Part shown: positions 1 through 34,732 of the stretch, in pieces | How positions within the stretch are numbered: position 1 is the first letter of the stretch | How the letters are laid out: every line of letters starts with the position of its first letter | Source of the DNA: a virus | Length of the DNA stretch: 34,732 nt | Reading direction: 5' to 3' (one strand) | IMG/VR virus record: IMGVR_UViG_3300028840_006925 | Coordinates: 1 to 34,732 of that record | The notes under the pieces: model-generated | What the model was told of the DNA's origin: nothing | Seen by the model: the letters and a program-made list of their open reading frames with translations, nothing else | The model's database searches: none | Made by a program: the position numbers and the translations under genes

Positions 1-144
1 ATGTGTTGAATATCAGTAACTTGCGTTTTGTTGCTTTTATGTGGGGATTTCCCCAAATGATGAGAATCAAGGACTTGCGACTTATTTTGTTTTGGATAAG
101 AATCTTTTGGAAGAAAGTTCTCTTCATTAGCAAACGCATACCAA
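1..144. repeat. Terminal redundancy, left copy. It is identical to 34589-34732, as expected for an assembly overlap of a circular or circularly permuted genome.
   Basis: Base-by-base comparison: atgtgttgaatatcagtaacttgcg...caaacgcataccaa occurs at both ends, and identity stops at 145 (caagtt). Confidence 0.9.
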
Positions 145-491
145 CAAGTTCTATCAAATCCTGTTTTATTGAAATTTCCTTTGATCAAAATTTTGTATTC
201 ATTAACAAGTTTATTTAATAATCTTTCAATTTGCTTATGAGATAAATAATCAAAATGATTTGCAATTTCTTTGATTGTCTGATAAGTCCATGTTCTGCCT
301 TCATAGAAATTTTCTTTTTTTCTTTTGTTAAGAGAAATCCAAAATATAAAATGTTGAACTAAAATTGCTTCATTAGTTCCAATTTGAGATGCTAAAACTG
401 GATCGAAAAAATGTCTTTCGTTTGAAGTTTTATAAAAAGATTCTTTTTTTTCTTGTAATAATTCTTCATTTTCTTTTATTATTTTATCCAT
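1..491 (-). CDS. Replication initiator / replisome-organizer-like protein, 5' part. The start is the ATG at 491. The frame runs off the window start and continues at 34588 down to 33913, giving a joined product of about 388 aa.
   Basis: My own translation is MDKIIKENEELLQEKKESFYKTSNERHFFDPVLASQIGTNEAILVQHFIFWISLNKRKKENFYEGRTWTYQTIKEIANHFDYLSHKQIERLLNKLVNEYKILIKGNFNKTGFDRTCWYAF... This is a winged-helix N-terminal pattern typical of phage DnaD / replication-organizer N domains. The RBS AAGGGAG lies 8 nt upstream. The frame is continuous with 33913-34644 through the 144-nt overlap: 491 + 676 = 1167 nt, or 389 codons. Confidence 0.75.
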   Translation of the reverse strand, partial: MDKIIKENEELLQEKKESFYKTSNERHFFDPVLASQIGTNEAILVQHFIFWISLNKRKKENFYEGRTWTYQTIKEIANHFDYLSHKQIERLLNKLVNEYKILIKGNFNKTGFDRTCWYAFANEENFLPKDSYPKQNKSQVLDSHHLGKSPHKSNKTQVTDIQH

Positions 492-562
492 AAAAGATGC
501 TCCCTTTGTAATAAAAAAGATGCTCCCTTTGTAATAATTTTAGGGTCATAAAGTTTATACAT
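479..562 (-). CDS. Candidate 27-aa leader ORF (MYKLYDPKIITKGASFLLQREHLLWIK) overlapping the rep start codon
   Basis: GGAGG at 569-573 lies 6 nt upstream of the ATG at 562. The ORF reads through both 23-bp repeats and stops (TAA 479-481) 8 nt past the rep ATG. It is too short for the ORF track. Confidence 0.3.
   Translation of the reverse strand: MYKLYDPKIITKGASFLLQREHLLWIK
492..537. repeat. Perfect tandem direct repeat, 2 x 23 bp (aaaagatgctccctttgtaataa), immediately upstream of the rep ATG
   Basis: 492-514 equals 515-537 exactly. On the minus strand each copy carries ACAAAGGGAGCATCTTTT, which is the rep Shine-Dalgarno context. Confidence 0.9.
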
Positions 563-590
563 AAAGAGCCTCCTTTATTGTTTTATTCAT

Positions 591-630
591 AAGCCGCAAA
601 GATCAAAACTTTGTGGCTTTTTTTATTTTT
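591..630 (+). terminator. Plus-strand intrinsic terminator located between two minus-strand genes
   Basis: The stem is aagccgcaaag (591-601) paired with ctttgtggctt (609-619), 11 bp, with a 7-nt loop. One G-U wobble on the plus-strand RNA becomes a C-A mismatch on the minus strand. The stem is followed by tttttatttt. There is no U-tract on the minus strand. Confidence 0.6.
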
Positions 631-771
631 GAGAATTATACTTTTTCTACCATATTCTATATTAAAAATTTAAGGAAGATATTTTTTGACGTTTTTTTAA
701 AAAAAATTTAACATATAAACTATCTTTTCATCTGCCAAATGAAAAATTGAAAAAAGGTTATAATTATTTTT

Positions 772-1065
772 TTATGGCCTTTTTTCATATTTTTCTTCAG
801 GAAGATATGGTTTCATAGATCCACAATGCTTACAAATTTCTCTTTGAACTTTTAAAAAAGCTTCAAAAGCATGATTGTGAAGATAATTTTTTTCATTTCT
901 TGTATAACTTTCTATATCTCTCAAAAGACGAGCAGATGGAAATTTTCTTCCAGTTATTAATTGATTTAAATAATTTGTTGAAATATGTAAATGCTGCGCT
1001 ACAACTTCTTTTCTAAGACCAGAGATTCTAATAAAAGTTTCTAATCTTTCAGACAAATTTAACAT
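772..1065 (-). CDS. XRE-family helix-turn-helix transcriptional regulator (Cro/CI-like)
   Basis: LSERLETFIRISGLRKEVVAQHLHISTNYLNQLITGRKFPS is a classic HTH_3 pattern. The RBS GGGAGGA lies 5 nt before the ATG. It is the first gene of the leftward array, at a divergent promoter region. Confidence 0.8.
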   Translation of the reverse strand: MLNLSERLETFIRISGLRKEVVAQHLHISTNYLNQLITGRKFPSARLLRDIESYTRNEKNYLHNHAFEAFLKVQREICKHCGSMKPYLPEEKYEKRP

Positions 1066-1103
1066 AATAATCCTCCCATTAATTATTTTGCTTATGACTT
1101 TTT

Positions 1104-1132
1104 CATATAGAGGAAATTTTTTAATTTGTCAA
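1104..1132 (-). promoter_or_regulatory. Sigma70-like promoter for the XRE gene and leftward transcription
   Basis: On the minus strand: TTGACA (1127-1132), a 17-bp spacer, then TATATG (1104-1109). Confidence 0.55.
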
Positions 1133-1235
1133 ATCTCATAGAGAAATTATTTTCGTTATTTCAGTGATAAAATGATTTTTTCATTTTTATTTAAGTTTAT
1201 CACGGAATTTGTGACCAGATTCTTGATAAATTTAG

Positions 1236-1263
1236 TTGACTTAAATTTACATTGTGCTATAAT
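1236..1263 (+). promoter_or_regulatory. Near-consensus sigma70 promoter with extended -10 for the rightward recombination operon
   Basis: TTGACT (1236-1241), a 16-bp spacer ending in TGC, then TATAAT (1258-1263), which gives a TGnTATAAT extended -10. Confidence 0.65.
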
Positions 1264-1426
1264 CTCCATAAAATTGGTTAAATATTCCGATATTTAACTA
1301 CAAAGGAGAATAAAAGTGATAGCATCAAAACTATCAAATTTAAATATTATTATATTCTTAATGCATCACTTGTTTACCAAAAGTATTATTATTAAATACT
1401 TAAGATTTAAAATAAGGAGAATAAAA

Positions 1427-1636
1427 ATGTCAGCATTTAAAAAAGAAAATTTTAGCTTACAAATTGGAGATTTTGTAAAAGGAAGAAAAGGAAAACATAC
1501 AATAAAAGGAACAGTTTTAGAAAGTACAAAAAAGCCAGGAAAGCCAGCTGTTTTTAGCAGATGGGGATATGTTGGCGTATGGATTGAAGATAAGTGTGGA
1601 AGAAAAACTGTTATTAATAATGTAGAATTAATTTAA
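1427..1636 (+). CDS. Small hypothetical protein (69 aa). An alternative GTG start lies at 1316.
   Basis: The ATG at 1427 is preceded by AAGGAGAATAAAA. The identical 13-mer also precedes the in-frame GTG at 1316. The N-terminal extension from that GTG is low-complexity I/L/K sequence, so I prefer the shorter form. Confidence 0.55.
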   Translation: MSAFKKENFSLQIGDFVKGRKGKHTIKGTVLESTKKPGKPAVFSRWGYVGVWIEDKCGRKTVINNVELI

Positions 1637-1662
1637 TCAATATATTAACTATGAGGAAAAAT

Positions 1663-2325
1663 ATGGAAACAAATGAAATTATAAAAAATGAAATTATAAA
1701 ATCAGATTCTAAATGTTGTAATTCATATAAATTTGAATCTGATCAATTAGATCAATTATATACTGCTTTAGCAAAAGCTCAAATGGAAATGGAAGCTGCT
1801 CCTAAAGCTAAAAATAATCCTTATTATAAAAGCAATTATGCAGATTTATCTTCTATAATTCAGGCATCACGTCCGAGTTTAGCTAAATATGATTTATGTG
1901 TTTTGCAAAGGATTATTCCTAATGGAGAAGGAAAAATGTATTTATGCACTAGACTTGGTCATAAATCTGGTCAATGGATAGAAAGCAAAATGATAATTAA
2001 TCCATTAAAAGCAGATATTCAGACATTAGGAAGTTATTTGACTTATATCAAGAGATATTCTTATGCAGCAATAGTTGGTGTTGCTACAGAAGACGATGAT
2101 GGCGAAAAAGCTATGGAAAGAGAAAATAAAAATCAATCTTTTAGAGATGGAAAAATCAAAAAAGAACAGATAAATATATTATCTCAATATTTAGAGAAAA
2201 ATCCTTCTCATTTGAAAGTTGTTTTAGAGAAATATAAAGTCTCTAAAATTTCTGATATGAAAGAAGTTGATTTTGAAAATTTTATGAAAGCGCTTAATTC
2301 TAAAAATAAAGGAAATGAAAAATGA
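1663..2325 (+). CDS. erf: ERF-family single-strand annealing recombinase
   Basis: The stretch LAKAQMEMEAAPKAKNNPYYKSNYADLSSIIQASRPSLAKYDL ... QTLGSYLTYIKRYSYAAIVGV..EDDDGE aligns by eye with P22 Erf motifs (APK...KYKY.S.EDIL..VKP and SYARKY...G..D..D). The RBS GAGGA precedes the ATG at 1663. The track start at 1651 has no RBS. Confidence 0.8.
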   Translation: METNEIIKNEIIKSDSKCCNSYKFESDQLDQLYTALAKAQMEMEAAPKAKNNPYYKSNYADLSSIIQASRPSLAKYDLCVLQRIIPNGEGKMYLCTRLGHKSGQWIESKMIINPLKADIQTLGSYLTYIKRYSYAAIVGVATEDDDGEKAMERENKNQSFRDGKIKKEQINILSQYLEKNPSHLKVVLEKYKVSKISDMKEVDFENFMKALNSKNKGNEK

Positions 2326-20432: not shown

Positions 20433-20450
20433 AGGGGCCAAAAGGCCCCT
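20433..20450. other. GC-rich perfect stem-loop (aggggcc-aaaa-ggcccct) between the capsid/decoration pair and the downstream genes
   Basis: It is a 7-bp G/C-rich stem with a tetraloop and stands out as unusually GC-rich. The T-rich run (tttattt) follows it only on the plus strand. Confidence 0.6.
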
Positions 20451-23950: not shown

Positions 23951-24532
23951 ATGAAAGTTGGATATGCAAGGGTCAGTTCTAAAGATCAAAATCTAGATAG
24001 ACAATTAAAAATTTTAAAAGAACATGGAGTTGAAGAAAAAAATATTTTTAAAGAAAAATATAGCGGCGCAACAAAAGAAAGGCCAGAATTTGACAAAATG
24101 TTAAACTTTCTTAGAAAGAATGATATTTTATATATTACAAGTCTCGATAGACTTTCCAGATCTCATGTTGATTTAATTAATACAATTAAATTTTTTGAAG
24201 AAAATAATATTTTTCTTAAATCTATAGAAGAAAATATTGATTTTTCTACTAATGTAGGACAATTGATGTTGCAAGTATTTGCTGCTATTCATGAATTTCA
24301 TAGAAAAACAATGAAAGAAAATCAAAAAATGGGATATATAGCGGCTAAATCAAGAGGGAAAAGATTTGGTCAACCCAGAAAATTATCTCTCTACCAAGCA
24401 AGAATAATCTATGAAACAATAAAAAAAGAAAACGTTCCAATATATAAAATAGCTAAAGAATTTAAAGTATCAAGACCTACAATTTATAAAGCTATAAAAG
24501 AATTCAAAGAAATAGAAAATATAAGAGATTAA
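23951..24532 (+). CDS. Small serine recombinase (resolvase/invertase family) with a C-terminal HTH
   Basis: MKVGYARVSSKDQNLDRQ...ILYITSLDRLSRS... carries the catalytic Ser in YARVSS. The length (193 aa) and the C-terminal IAKEFKVSRPTIYKAI HTH match the Hin/Gin/Tn3 resolvase architecture. Confidence 0.9.
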   Translation: MKVGYARVSSKDQNLDRQLKILKEHGVEEKNIFKEKYSGATKERPEFDKMLNFLRKNDILYITSLDRLSRSHVDLINTIKFFEENNIFLKSIEENIDFSTNVGQLMLQVFAAIHEFHRKTMKENQKMGYIAAKSRGKRFGQPRKLSLYQARIIYETIKKENVPIYKIAKEFKVSRPTIYKAIKEFKEIENIRD

Positions 24533-31135: not shown

Positions 31136-31165
31136 GAGAGACTTAAATAGTCTCTCATTTTTTTA
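31136..31165 (+). terminator. Stem-loop gagagact-taaat-agtctctc followed by a T-run on the plus strand
   Basis: The 8-bp perfect stem is 31136-31143 paired with 31149-31156, followed by attttttta. On the minus strand the downstream sequence is only UGAUUUGAAG. Confidence 0.45.
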
Positions 31166-31186
31166 TACTAATAATAAAATTATTTG

Positions 31187-32141: not shown

Positions 32142-32356
32142 TTGCTATCTTTTGAACGATTTTGTACAGCTTCCCAAAATTTTTCTTCATTTATAAGGAC
32201 TCTTCGCCCTATTGATAAAAAAGCTTTGGAAAAACCATTAATATTAGAATTAGCACGGAGTGCCCAAATAGTTGGTTCACTTCCTGGCCAAATGCCAACT
32301 TCTTTATTTTTCTTTGCAAAATTTTTAACAGTAAAAAATTTGGGATTATTACCCAT
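32138..32356 (-). CDS. Excisionase/AlpA-like (HTH_17-type) small DNA-binding protein
   Basis: FFTVKNFAKKNKEVGIWPGSEPTIWALRAN...GRRVLINEEKFWEAV resembles MerR-like excisionase-family HTH proteins. Confidence 0.45.
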   Translation of the reverse strand: MGNNPKFFTVKNFAKKNKEVGIWPGSEPTIWALRANSNINGFSKAFLSIGRRVLINEEKFWEAVQNRSKDSK

Positions 32357-32582
32357 AGGATTTTTTTTTCTTACTTTTTTCTTGCTGTTTTTTACATGTT
32401 TTTAGTTGTTCTTTTCGTTTTTTCTCTTTTTTTATATATTCTTTGTATTCTAGTCTTACTTTTTCGTCATATTCTTTATGTTTCTGTTTTTCTTTTTCAT
32501 ATTTCTTTTTTTCTTTTTCAAATGTTGTAGAAAAAGATGATAGAATAAAAAAAATAATTATATAAAATAATCCTATTTTCAT
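32349..32582 (-). CDS. Signal-anchored hyper-charged K/E miniprotein, copy B (MKIGLFY family)
   Basis: MKIGLFYIIIFFILSSFSTTF is followed by EKEKKKYEKEKQKHKEYDEK... The protein is a paralogue of the 33037-33258 product, and DNA identity extends into the upstream aaaaaacgATGAAAATAGG. Confidence 0.65.
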   Translation of the reverse strand: MKIGLFYIIIFFILSSFSTTFEKEKKKYEKEKQKHKEYDEKVRLEYKEYIKKEKKRKEQLKTCKKQQEKSKKKKSYG

Positions 32583-33036: not shown

Positions 33037-33258
33037 TTATTTTTTCTTCTTATTTGTTTTTTTCTTACTTTTTTCTTGCTGTTTTTTATATATTTTTAAT
33101 TGTTCTTTTCGTTTTTTTGCTTCTTTTTTATGTTCTTTATATTCTTTTTCTATTTTTTCTATATATTTTTTATGTTCTTTCTCTTGTTCTTTTTCAAATA
33201 TTGTAACAAAAGATGAGAAAATAAAAAAAATAATTATGTAAAATAATCCTATTTTCAT
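33037..33258 (-). CDS. Signal-anchored hyper-charged K/E miniprotein, copy A (MKIGLFY family)
   Basis: MKIGLFYIIIFFIFSSFVTIF is followed by EKEQEKEHKKYIEKIEKEYKEHKKEAKKRKEQLK... The start overlaps the stop of the interrupted upstream ORF (ATGA). Confidence 0.65.
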   Translation of the reverse strand: MKIGLFYIIIFFIFSSFVTIFEKEQEKEHKKYIEKIEKEYKEHKKEAKKRKEQLKIYKKQQEKSKKKTNKKKK

Positions 33259-33509: not shown

Positions 33510-33808
33510 TTTTCCCTCTTTATTTTTTCTTCTCTTTCTTTTTCATTTTGTATAGCTTCCCTCAAAAAATGTTCAGCTAATTTAAGATAAAAACCTTTTT
33601 CTTTTTTTAAATTTTTAGCAATAACTCTTGCATCATCAAGCAAATCACATATAAAAAAATATGTTATTTTTTCTAAATTCTCTAAATTTTCTTCAAAGGT
33701 ATTATTATTTTTACTAAATTCCATTAATTTAAAATGCTGTACAAGATAGAGCATGATGGCATTTGCTGGATGAATAGTCTGAAGAAAATCTTGAATATTA
33801 TTTTTCAT
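33506..33808 (-). CDS. Hypothetical early protein (100 aa)
   Basis: The first 35 nt of the ORF lie in copy A of the 115-bp tandem repeat. Confidence 0.6.
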   Translation of the reverse strand: MKNNIQDFLQTIHPANAIMLYLVQHFKLMEFSKNNNTFEENLENLEKITYFFICDLLDDARVIAKNLKKEKGFYLKLAEHFLREAIQNEKEREEKIKREK

Positions 33809-34003
33809 TTATTTTCATTTTTAAAATTTTTTCAATCATATTATTTGATAATCTATAAATTTTTCTCAAGAAATATATTGAACTCGCTATAGTCTTAAGA
33901 AAATCTTGAATATTATTTTTCATTTATTTTCATTTTTAAAATTTTTTCAATCATATCATCTGATAATCCATAAATTTTTCTCAAGAAATTTATTAAACTC
34001 TCT
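33774..34003. repeat. Tandem direct duplication, 2 x 115 bp, 7 mismatches by my count (33774-33888 and 33889-34003), spanning the rep stop and the next gene's start
   Basis: I aligned the two copies by eye: atagtct[g/t]aagaaaatcttgaatattatttttcatttattttcatttttaaaattttttcaatcata... Both copies retain the ATG and the TAA. Confidence 0.85.
33798..33923 (-). CDS. Chimeric 41-aa ORF created by the duplication (MKNNIQDFLKTIASSIYFLRKIYRLSNNMIEKILKMKINEK)
   Basis: The N-terminus equals the first 9 aa of the 100-aa gene. The C-terminus is a near copy of the Rep C-terminus (..INFLRKIYGLSDDMIEKILKMKINEK). It has the same overlapping-start geometry as the parental junction. Confidence 0.3.
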   Translation of the reverse strand: MKNNIQDFLKTIASSIYFLRKIYRLSNNMIEKILKMKINEK

Positions 34004-34732
34004 ACTGTGAATTTATATCTTGTTCCTGTTTTTGCATTAACAAAACATCCATTTTCTATCTTAAGATATCCTTGATTGTGATAATACGGCGAATTGGCTT
34101 GAAGCATCCAATTTTCATACTCTTTATGTTTTTCAAAAACTATCTTTTGATCTTCCTCTTTTTTCTTTTTTATTTCTACTTGTCTTTCTTTTTTTTCCTT
34201 TGTTTTTTTTAGCCAATTTAAAAGAGTTTTGTAATCATTATTTCTTGTAACTGCATTTTCATATTTCCAGCGAGAAAGATTTTCAGCTTCTTCATATGTC
34301 ATATCTTTCCCAAAAGTAGAAATCAATTTGTCGAGATCTTTTTGTGTCATCTCAACATTTTCTGCGATTACAACTTTGATTGGTTTTAATTTTTCTTTTT
34401 TCTTTTTTGAAGAAGAAAAAACTTTATATTGAGCACCGCCAGGTGCGAGAGCTGCGTTAGCAGCGACTTCTTCAGAAGATTCTACTTTCTTTTCTTTTTT
34501 ATATATTTTTTCTTTTCTATATATATCTTCTTTATTCTTATCTGGTATAGGTTTCCCGATATCGGGAAATCGATTTGACGAAATCGGGATGTGTTGAATA
34601 TCAGTAACTTGCGTTTTGTTGCTTTTATGTGGGGATTTCCCCAAATGATGAGAATCAAGGACTTGCGACTTATTTTGTTTTGGATAAGAATCTTTTGGAA
34701 GAAAGTTCTCTTCATTAGCAAACGCATACCAA
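33913..34732 (-). CDS. Replication initiator, 3' part. The frame is open to the window end. The track ORF 33913-34644 begins at an internal TTG.
   Basis: The ORF track protein ...GKSPHKSNKTQVTDIQH... is identical to the end of the minus-strand frame read from 491 to 1. The stop TAA is at 33913-33915. Confidence 0.75.
   Translation of the reverse strand, partial: WYAFANEENFLPKDSYPKQNKSQVLDSHHLGKSPHKSNKTQVTDIQHIPISSNRFPDIGKPIPDKNKEDIYRKEKIYKKEKKVESSEEVAANAALAPGGAQYKVFSSSKKKKEKLKPIKVVIAENVEMTQKDLDKLISTFGKDMTYEEAENLSRWKYENAVTRNNDYKTLLNWLKKTKEKKERQVEIKKKKEEDQKIVFEKHKEYENWMLQANSPYYHNQGYLKIENGCFVNAKTGTRYKFTVESLINFLRKIYGLSDDMIEKILKMKINEK
34552..34589. promoter_or_regulatory. Cluster of nested dyad symmetries inside the rep coding sequence; candidate origin or iteron-like element
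   Basis: There is an 18-bp perfect palindrome tttcccgatatcgggaaa (34552-34569) and an overlapping 10-bp palindrome aaatcgattt (34567-34576). A third atcggga / gaaatcg copy lies at 34580-34589. The cluster is locally GC-rich and encodes the inter-domain linker ..NRFPDIGKPIPD.. Confidence 0.4.
34589..34732. repeat. Terminal redundancy, right copy of 1-144
   Basis: Same 144-nt string as the window start. The unique genome length is 34588 bp. Confidence 0.9.

Follow-up and report, generated by a model that had tools for sequence, protein, structure and literature searches.

Does the region in front of the replication gene of an uncultivated phage encode a short antisense RNA and, if so, does its design resemble that of a plasmid copy-number circuit or that of a phage countertranscript? 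The question is raised by IMG/VR record IMGVR_UViG_3300028840_006925, a stretch of viral DNA of 34,732 nucleotides (nt) that is referred to below, as a whole, as the window. In it, the initiator gene rep lies on the minus strand downstream of a gene for an XRE-family regulator; the 280-bp spacer between the two genes holds a tandem repeat of a 23-bp unit, the start of a leader open reading frame (ORF) and a terminator hairpin. A sequence-only reading of this locus had explained these elements, together with a candidate promoter, as a plasmid-like translational control region with an antisense RNA. On balance, we think that the hairpin and T-run at 591–630 would end a short countertranscript directed against the rep mRNA leader, and that they would belong to a functional counterpart of the lambda pO-oop-t_oop unit.

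An antisense terminator conserved upstream of rep

The two features on which the argument turns are the terminator and the gene that it faces:

591–630, plus strand: intrinsic terminator, antisense to rep, with an 11-bp stem (591–619), the loop ATCAAAA and a T-run (620–630)
491 to 1, then 34588 to 33913 across the circular junction, minus strand: rep, 388 amino acids (aa), start ATG at 491

The terminator is real and specific to the plus strand, as the sequence-only reading had proposed. On that strand, the stem is followed by TTTTTATTTTT and the element folds with −14.7 kcal/mol (z = −4.9; 0/200 shuffles) versus −12.2 kcal/mol on the minus strand, where a C.A mismatch stands in place of the plus-strand G.U pair and the tail, UAUGAAUAAAAC, is not U-rich. 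The T-run, present on the plus strand only, amounts to 12 T in 13 nt beside the stem; it is not an effect of composition because the plus strand is only 39% T overall. In the first 1700 positions of the window (1–1700), 3 terminator-like sites were observed versus 0.3 ± 0.5 expected, and strict terminator criteria retain just two plus-strand sites in the whole 34.6-kb genome. The distance from the terminator to the rep ATG is 100 nt.

No close relatives of the phage were found, either by blastn against INPHARED phages or, with Rep peptides, in IMG/VR. Lacking alignable relatives, we asked whether the architecture recurs among Rep homologues. The first six phage-like contigs retrieved through Rep homologues all (6/6) carry a terminator hairpin on the antisense strand, 80–390 nt upstream of rep; read on the rep strand, each hairpin is preceded by an A-run. 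In contig L010, a G.U pair of the antisense stem is replaced by a C.A mismatch on the sense strand. A further 80 loci were taken from JGI metagenomes, all of them anchored on the conserved H-S/F-F-D motif (Rep residue 27). An earlier, loose terminator scan was abandoned, its antisense matches inside coding sequence (33/57) being an artefact of T-rich antisense strands. The strict scan demanded a hairpin of at most 34 nt, a ΔG of −12 kcal/mol or lower and 6 or more T among the 8 nt that follow; after this tightening of the criteria, the gene-body control gave antisense matches in 7/64 loci and sense matches in 0/64.

Under the strict scan, a terminator within 500 nt upstream of rep was present on the antisense strand in 37/67 loci and on the sense strand in 8/67; counted by de-replicated lineages, the figures are 36/60 and 7/60, respectively. 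Nearly all of the antisense hairpins (39/41) are antisense-only. Their density is 1.81 per kb in the interval from −250 to 0 (sense strand, 0.27 per kb) and 0.99 per kb from −500 to −250 (sense strand, 0.20 per kb), with a background of about 0.1 per kb on either strand over ±2.5 kb. Between the nearest hairpin and the estimated start codon of rep, the median distance is 143 nt (range 66–368 nt; 100 nt in the window), and the context of this hairpin is a spacer after a co-directional gene in 17 cases (as in the window), the inside of a co-directional ORF in 7 and a divergent spacer in 6. The strand bias was also analysed in an unbiased hairpin set, chosen on either strand at −12 kcal/mol or lower: 35 of these hairpins have a T-tail on the antisense side only and 5 on the sense side only, and of the 35, 26 fold more stably on the antisense strand versus 5 that do so on the sense strand (p = 2e-4; −2.9 kcal/mol on average). 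Such an asymmetry in fold stability is an RNA property and is independent of the tail criterion. Throughout the Rep family, the antisense terminator thus keeps its place and its direction, and this conservation is the strongest sequence-level evidence available for a plus-strand RNA, complementary to the rep leader, that would end at this place in the window.

Other arrangements were seen during the survey. In five loci (L124, L125, L151, L158 and L163) a strong sense-oriented terminator stands right before rep, about 50 nt upstream of the Rep motif, and there is no antisense one; this subgroup may represent an attenuator-type variant of rep control. Contig L010 (NCBI metagenome-assembled genome contig GCA_964471825.1, 40 kb) carries at 817–2623, divergent from rep, a ParA gene (CbiA/AAA_31) and a Borrelia-type plasmid-partition-like gene. 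This distant Rep relative, which has the antisense terminator, may be a phage-plasmid.

The predicted countertranscript and lambda oop

As a positive control, the same tools were run on lambda (NC_001416, 38000–39700). On the antisense strand they returned a promoter, TTGAGT-17-(TG)CATAAT, which scores 9/12 and whose −10 overlaps the O start codon and, in the same scan, an antisense terminator 57 nt upstream of O; together, these are the pO/oop/t_oop unit. The oop RNA is a short leftward transcript antisense to cII, and the activity of pO modulates both pR transcription and replication, which the authors name a 'dual promoter system' (PMC3985674). OOP RNA was also detected by RNA sequencing at the same position in the Salmonella prophage BTP1 (PMC7067206; review PMC12197685). 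The window is like lambda in two respects: (i) an antisense terminator lies a short distance upstream of the initiator start (57 nt in lambda, 100 nt here) and (ii) iterons are found inside the initiator gene, as they are in the Rep family. It may be like lambda in a third, an antisense promoter at the 5′ edge of the initiator gene: pO overlaps the O ATG, and the window has a candidate site inside the first rep codons. OOP is 77 nt long, versus about 85–140 nt predicted for the window RNA. The targets would differ. OOP overlaps the 3′ end of cII, which it targets via RNase III, whereas the window RNA would pair only with the rep leader because its terminator ends 140 nt before the XRE gene (stop codon 772–774).

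Two sites on the plus strand can be considered as start points for this RNA:

453–482, plus strand: candidate countertranscript promoter, TTGTAA (453–458), 18-nt spacing, TATTAT (477–482), within rep codons 4–13
530–538, plus strand: alternative promoter, an extended −10-like TGtAATAAT inside repeat copy 2, read from the sequence

The −10 of the former lies 7 nt inside rep; transcription from it is predicted to start at about 489–491 and would give an RNA of about 135–140 nt. The alternative would give an RNA of about 85 nt, covering only the start of the leader ORF and its Shine-Dalgarno (SD) sequence. We infer the plus-strand RNA complementary to the rep leader, and the role of 453–482 as its putative promoter, from sequence alone. 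A plus-strand ORF at 389–493 (34 aa, hydrophobic) was considered as a small gene ended by the terminator and was rejected: it has no SD, and its composition is as expected for the antisense of a Lys/Glu-rich coding sequence.

The mechanism that we propose follows the lambda unit, with an antisense promoter at the 5′ edge of rep and an antisense terminator 60–150 nt upstream. The countertranscript, of either predicted length, would have its 3′ end at about 624–630. Either this RNA or its transcription as such probably reduces the synthesis of Rep, for which three routes can be envisaged: (i) the RNA would pair with the rep leader, in which both ribosome-binding sites lie; (ii) the duplex of RNA and leader would trigger cleavage; or (iii) antisense transcription would collide with early transcription entering rep from the XRE side.

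Next to this unit, towards the regulator, lies a second hairpin:

748–797, plus strand: second hairpin and T-run, overlapping the XRE stop codon
772–1065, minus strand: XRE-family regulator gene (HTH_31, 97 aa), upstream of rep and in the same direction

It alone overlaps the XRE stop codon, which the terminator at 591–630 does not. It folds with −16.9 kcal/mol on the plus strand versus −8.3 kcal/mol on the minus strand (two G.U pairs versus two C.A mismatches), and may be a backup or second antisense terminator as well as a weak bidirectional terminator for the XRE gene. A plus-strand promoter-like site (TTGACG-17-TAACAT) was noticed at 686–714, upstream of this hairpin. Between them, a further RNA could be made, about 75 nt long and complementary to the 3′ end of the XRE gene; by analogy, such an RNA would come closer still to the arrangement of lambda oop and cII.

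The duplicated rep leader and its genomic setting

Between the terminator and rep lie the elements that had given the locus its plasmid-like appearance:

492–537 (492–514 and 515–537): perfect 2 × 23-bp tandem duplication, unit AAAAGATGCTCCCTTTGTAATAA
562 to 479, minus strand: 27-codon upstream ORF, MYKLYDPKIITKGASFLLQREHLLWIK, with the SD GGAGG at 573–569, 6 nt from its ATG
490–578, minus strand: predicted rep mRNA leader stem, in which the upstream start region, AAUAAAGGAGGCUCUUUAUG, pairs with the rep-proximal start region, CAAAGGGAGCAUCUUUUAU

The repeat is as the sequence-only reading described it. It is perfect and unique, no further copy being found in the genome at up to 3 mismatches (0 expected), and it is not an assembly artefact because L011 (Logan SRR6963591), which was assembled independently and matches the window at 100% along 1 kb, has the identical repeat. 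The phage is also present in sample ENA ERZ27256776. Read on the minus strand, the unit is TTATTACAAAGGGAGCATCTTTT; it includes the rep SD (AAGGGAG in each copy); the rep-proximal copy ends exactly at the rep ATG. The duplication is specific to this lineage and, with not one base different between the copies, probably recent.

The leader ORF is likewise present, with its GGAGG; its stop is at 481–479, and its overlap with rep is 13 nt (ATGGATAAAATAA) and not 8 nt, as had been stated. This ORF owes its existence to the duplication because, when one 23-bp unit is removed in silico, the distance from ATG562 to ATG491 becomes 48 nt, or 16 codons without stops, and ATG562 falls in frame and reads straight into rep (MYKLYDPKIITKGASF-MDKIIKE...). 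A separate 27-codon ORF exists only through the frameshift that the duplication induced. The duplicated ribosome-binding site and the leader ORF, which the sequence-only reading had taken for designed parts of a control region, are products of one perfect 23-bp duplication. The two nearest homologues of Rep, P0001 (38% identity, with 92% of the query covered) and P0003, start at the counterpart of ATG491, which is therefore probably the native rep start; ATG562 as the ancestral start was judged less likely on the same ground.

Folding of the rep leader, which had been suggested as a check, predicts a stem that hides the rep SD (−23.5 kcal/mol, z = −3.5). The predicted probability that the rep-proximal SD is unpaired is 0.05 with two copies of the unit and 0.01 with one. 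The duplication shifts ATG562 out of the rep frame; in our model, this start would now make a 27-codon peptide whose stop region overlaps the rep ATG, and Rep translation from ATG491 may be coupled to the leader ORF via the stem that hides the rep ribosome-binding site. Translational coupling of this kind is plausible as a prediction, and the relatives lend it no support.

The repeat and the leader ORF, whose conservation in related genomes the earlier interpretation had called for, are not conserved beyond chance, to judge from the sequences of the relatives. A perfect direct repeat of at least 12 nt upstream of rep occurs in just 6/61 relatives. An upstream ORF ending at the estimated rep start was found in 23/60 lineages, with lengths from 23 to 178 codons and several real HTH proteins among them; by an estimate made without a formal control, we take this to be roughly the frequency that chance and the usual packing of operons would yield. 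A gapped DNA pattern allowing one or two copies of the repeat gave 0 matches in IMG/VR and the JGI metagenomes.

Two further rearrangements at the ends of rep genes were observed. In L094 (2676–3040), the upstream HTH_36 gene begins (MSDNNKDLKESQ) with a second copy of the first 12 rep codons (MSYNNKDLKESQ) and of the rep start region, which makes this locus another case of a rep 5′ end that was duplicated or recombined. The window itself has another young tandem duplication, of 115 bp, at 33774–34004 (2 copies, 93% identical), spanning the rep 3′ end and the start of the next gene. It yields a chimeric 41-aa ORF (33798–33923) in which the start of the downstream gene is joined to the Rep C-terminus, and assembly L011 seems to break at it.

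Rep matches PHROG 11233, 6493 and 13246 (replication initiation protein, DnaD-like helicase loader and replisome organizer) and, as classified by these matches, is an initiator of the phage replisome-organiser or DnaD-like type. It has no Pfam domain, a plasmid Rep domain included, and no match to any solved structure. Inside rep, a 21-nt unit is repeated at 22-bp spacing (34547–34567 and 34569–34589) and includes the palindrome TTTCCCGATATCGGGAAA; an AT-rich 18-bp tandem repeat (34490–34525) adjoins it. The probable origin of replication is placed by these sequence features at 34490–34589, inside rep, in the linker between the Rep domains. In the Rep family, perfect direct repeats with a 21–22-bp period occur inside rep at +300 to +380 nt from the conserved motif in 42/78 loci.

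The true genome is circular and 34,588 bp long, the ends of the window sharing a 144-bp overlap (bases 1–144 = 34589–34732), and has a GC content of 29%. It encodes a terminase, a portal and major head and tail proteins, as well as RusA, an Erf/YqaJ recombination pair and a small serine resolvase/invertase, and nearly all genes of the phage are on the minus strand. Domain and PHROG searches of the window genes revealed no integrase gene and no partition gene. The XRE protein has no homologue among 5.8 billion proteins. The portal protein was tried as a guide to the host; its 24% identity to Pseudomonas and Ralstonia podoviruses is uninformative.

Several other features of the genome were recorded. 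The small serine recombinase (23951–24532, plus strand), which has a Resolvase N-terminal domain and an HTH and matches a PHROG DNA invertase, is on the strand opposite to its neighbours and is the sole recombinase detected. A stretch of some 1.3 kb just downstream of rep is of low complexity (GC about 20%); in it, two small paralogous ORFs (32349–32582 and 33037–33258, minus strand) share the N-terminus MKIGLFYIIIFFI... and continue with very Lys/Glu-rich tails. Two further compact, GC-rich, plus-oriented hairpins are located between minus-strand genes at 20433–20450 and 31136–31166, each with an A-run before it on the coding strand and a T-run after it on the plus strand. Canonical minus-strand intrinsic terminators are almost absent from the genome, despite its mostly minus-strand genes.

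Countertranscript, insulator or plasmid circuit

The sequence-only reading had named the IncFII (tap/CopA) and IncI/IncB plasmids as the analogue of this locus. IncFII tap/CopA and IncB/IncI-alpha repY/Inc RNA are indeed like the window in having an upstream ORF at the rep start, a sequestered rep ribosome-binding site and a complementary countertranscript. They are unlike it in that the leader ORF of the window stems from a recent duplication and is not conserved, and in that the Rep family is a different one: no IncFII-type RepA was found by Pfam or PHROG, and CopA was unmatched in Rfam at either threshold. The Rfam search over the whole window gave nothing at gathering score, the plasmid countertranscript families ctRNA_pT181, pND324, pGA1 and p42d included; at the E-value threshold, the only hit to these families, ctRNA_p42d at 305–328 (16.7 bits versus a gathering score of 50, E = 2.9), was noise. 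In plasmid pMV158, RNAII is complementary to the translation-initiation region of repB and inhibits translation directly, and it works alongside a small upstream gene for a transcriptional repressor, CopG (PMC4485353). The window shares with pMV158 a small upstream regulator gene (CopG there, XRE here); unlike the window, pMV158 is a plasmid with a rolling-circle initiator and no leader ORF, and the two show no sequence or Rfam relationship.

Phages offer a second comparison beside lambda. The antisense RNA of phage P1 acts on transcription of the kilA-repL operon from P53; the replication protein there is RepL, in another architecture. This antisense RNA of the P1 lytic replicon is reportedly the subject of a study by Heinrich et al. 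(1995, Nucleic Acids Res 23:1468), cited in PMC9948254. P1 thus has a phage replication gene under a cis-encoded antisense RNA, as the window would have. The lambda pO/oop unit fits the window better than IncFII or IncB plasmid control does: its geometry is the same. Nor would an antisense RNA here say anything about episomal maintenance, because lambda, an integrating phage, has that geometry too.

Several observations weigh against a countertranscript of the oop type. Unlike oop, the window RNA would not reach the upstream regulator gene. The parallel is one of architecture and not of descent: no homology of the Rep family to lambda O was detected (hhalign with the Rep alignment, probability 14%), blastn-short found no significant match of the window to oop, and no Rfam family applies, for which reasons the unit is filed as oop-like by its architecture. 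The candidate promoter at 453–482 does exist where the sequence-only reading had placed it, but of the four features described there it is the one that does not exceed chance: in DNA of 29% GC, 9/12 matches like this one are as frequent as expected (13 found versus 11.1 ± 3.5 expected in 1.7 kb). Across the family, antisense promoter-like sites near the rep start are weakly enriched (3.9 per kb versus 1.4–2.9 per kb in neighbouring bins). Covariation in the stem at 591–619 could be sought in no alignable relative, the sole close one, L011, being 100% identical. Finally, the plus-oriented hairpins at 20433–20450 and 31136–31166, which lie between minus-strand genes, suggest that wrong-strand terminators may have a more general insulating role in this genome.

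That role is the core of one alternative, in which the terminator stops plus-strand transcription that leaves rep or the origin before it reaches the XRE gene and the divergent early promoters, and the RNA released is functionless. A family-wide antisense-only terminator fits insulation as well as it fits a regulatory RNA; the hairpin at 748–797 looks like a tandem fail-safe, the two similar hairpins elsewhere in the genome agree with it, and so does the lack of a specific promoter above chance. An insulator, however, would serve equally well anywhere between rep and the control region, whereas the tight clustering of the hairpins in the last 250 nt or so before rep speaks for a short, defined unit of transcription, and in the lambda precedent both RNA and promoter are functional (PMC3985674). 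We consider insulation alone unlikely. A plasmid-type copy-number circuit after IncFII tap/CopA or IncB/IncI repY/Inc RNA, in which translation of the leader would be needed for Rep synthesis, a countertranscript would block it and the phage would be maintained as a plasmid, is in our judgement quite improbable. It draws on the 27-codon ORF with its strong GGAGG SD that ends 13 nt inside rep, on the predicted stem hiding the rep SD, which would open on translation of the upstream ORF, and on a countertranscript that would cover both ribosome-binding sites; the lack of a detected integrase, the small serine resolvase/invertase being the sole recombinase, and the ParA and ParB-like genes beside rep in the distant relative L010 point the same way. 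Yet the leader ORF is there only through a perfect, hence recent, duplication; the repeat is absent from relatives (an upstream direct repeat of any kind occurs in 6/61), and overlapping ORFs are no commoner in them than by chance; Rep is a phage replisome organiser without a plasmid Rep domain; neither CopA nor a ctRNA family was matched in Rfam; partition genes were not found in the window; and integrating lambda has the same antisense unit. The episomal copy-number maintenance put forward in the sequence-only reading finds no footing in these data.

The elements might also act as DNA or in the sense transcript. That the 23-bp repeats, the inverted repeat and the AT-rich tract at 617–720 form an origin or operator bound by Rep or by the XRE protein, the hairpin being a mere palindrome, appears very unlikely to us. 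Direct repeats, inverted repeat and AT-rich tract do adjoin rep in the manner of the upstream iterons of P1 and pSC101, and a few relatives have multi-copy tandem arrays upstream of rep (L106, 19-bp period, five copies; L117, 31-bp period, four copies; and L095). An origin or operator of the P1 oriR/pSC101 type would, however, call for at least three helically phased iterons bound by Rep, and here there are only two copies, identical including the spacer, with no degenerate copy elsewhere; the iterons of the family lie inside rep, as do those of the window (34547–34589). The G.U versus C.A asymmetry and the one-sided T-run are, moreover, RNA properties that recur family-wide. Such RNA properties might serve the rep mRNA itself, with the hairpin as a stabilising 5′ stem-loop or processing site and the T-run as a by-product of composition. 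The hairpin folds on the minus strand too (−12.2 kcal/mol), and a minus-strand TATAAT at 640–635 would set it at the extreme 5′ end of the rep mRNA. The A-run right 5′ of the stem in 39/41 family hairpins has, on the other hand, no known role in sense RNA; stems are systematically weaker on the sense strand; and the density of T beside the stem is far from that of a plus strand with only 39% T. We give a sense-strand function hardly any credence.

The oop-like countertranscript is thus the reading to which we return for the window. Its extension to the whole Rep family, which is large, spans many phyla and has a Rep unrelated in sequence to lambda O and 21–22-bp iterons inside the gene, is more tentative: the family may carry a conserved, hitherto undescribed oop-like countertranscript unit right upstream of rep whose RNA, or whose transcription, would set the Rep level or the firing of the origin. 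In the window, the duplication would then have rewired its target into a start site coupled to an upstream ORF.

The locus also carries a caution against reading regulatory logic from one genome, since the look of plasmid-like translational control, with a leader peptide and a duplicated ribosome-binding site, can come from one slippage duplication. What is gained is an annotation rule, namely to seek an antisense-only terminator 60–370 nt upstream of this Rep family, together with some 36 independent lineages for which the RNA could be confirmed from metatranscriptomes. If this RNA exists, the lambda pO/oop design, an antisense unit set between early regulator and replication initiator, would not be peculiar to lambdoid coliphages; it would recur in unrelated replication modules of uncultivated phages from many environments.

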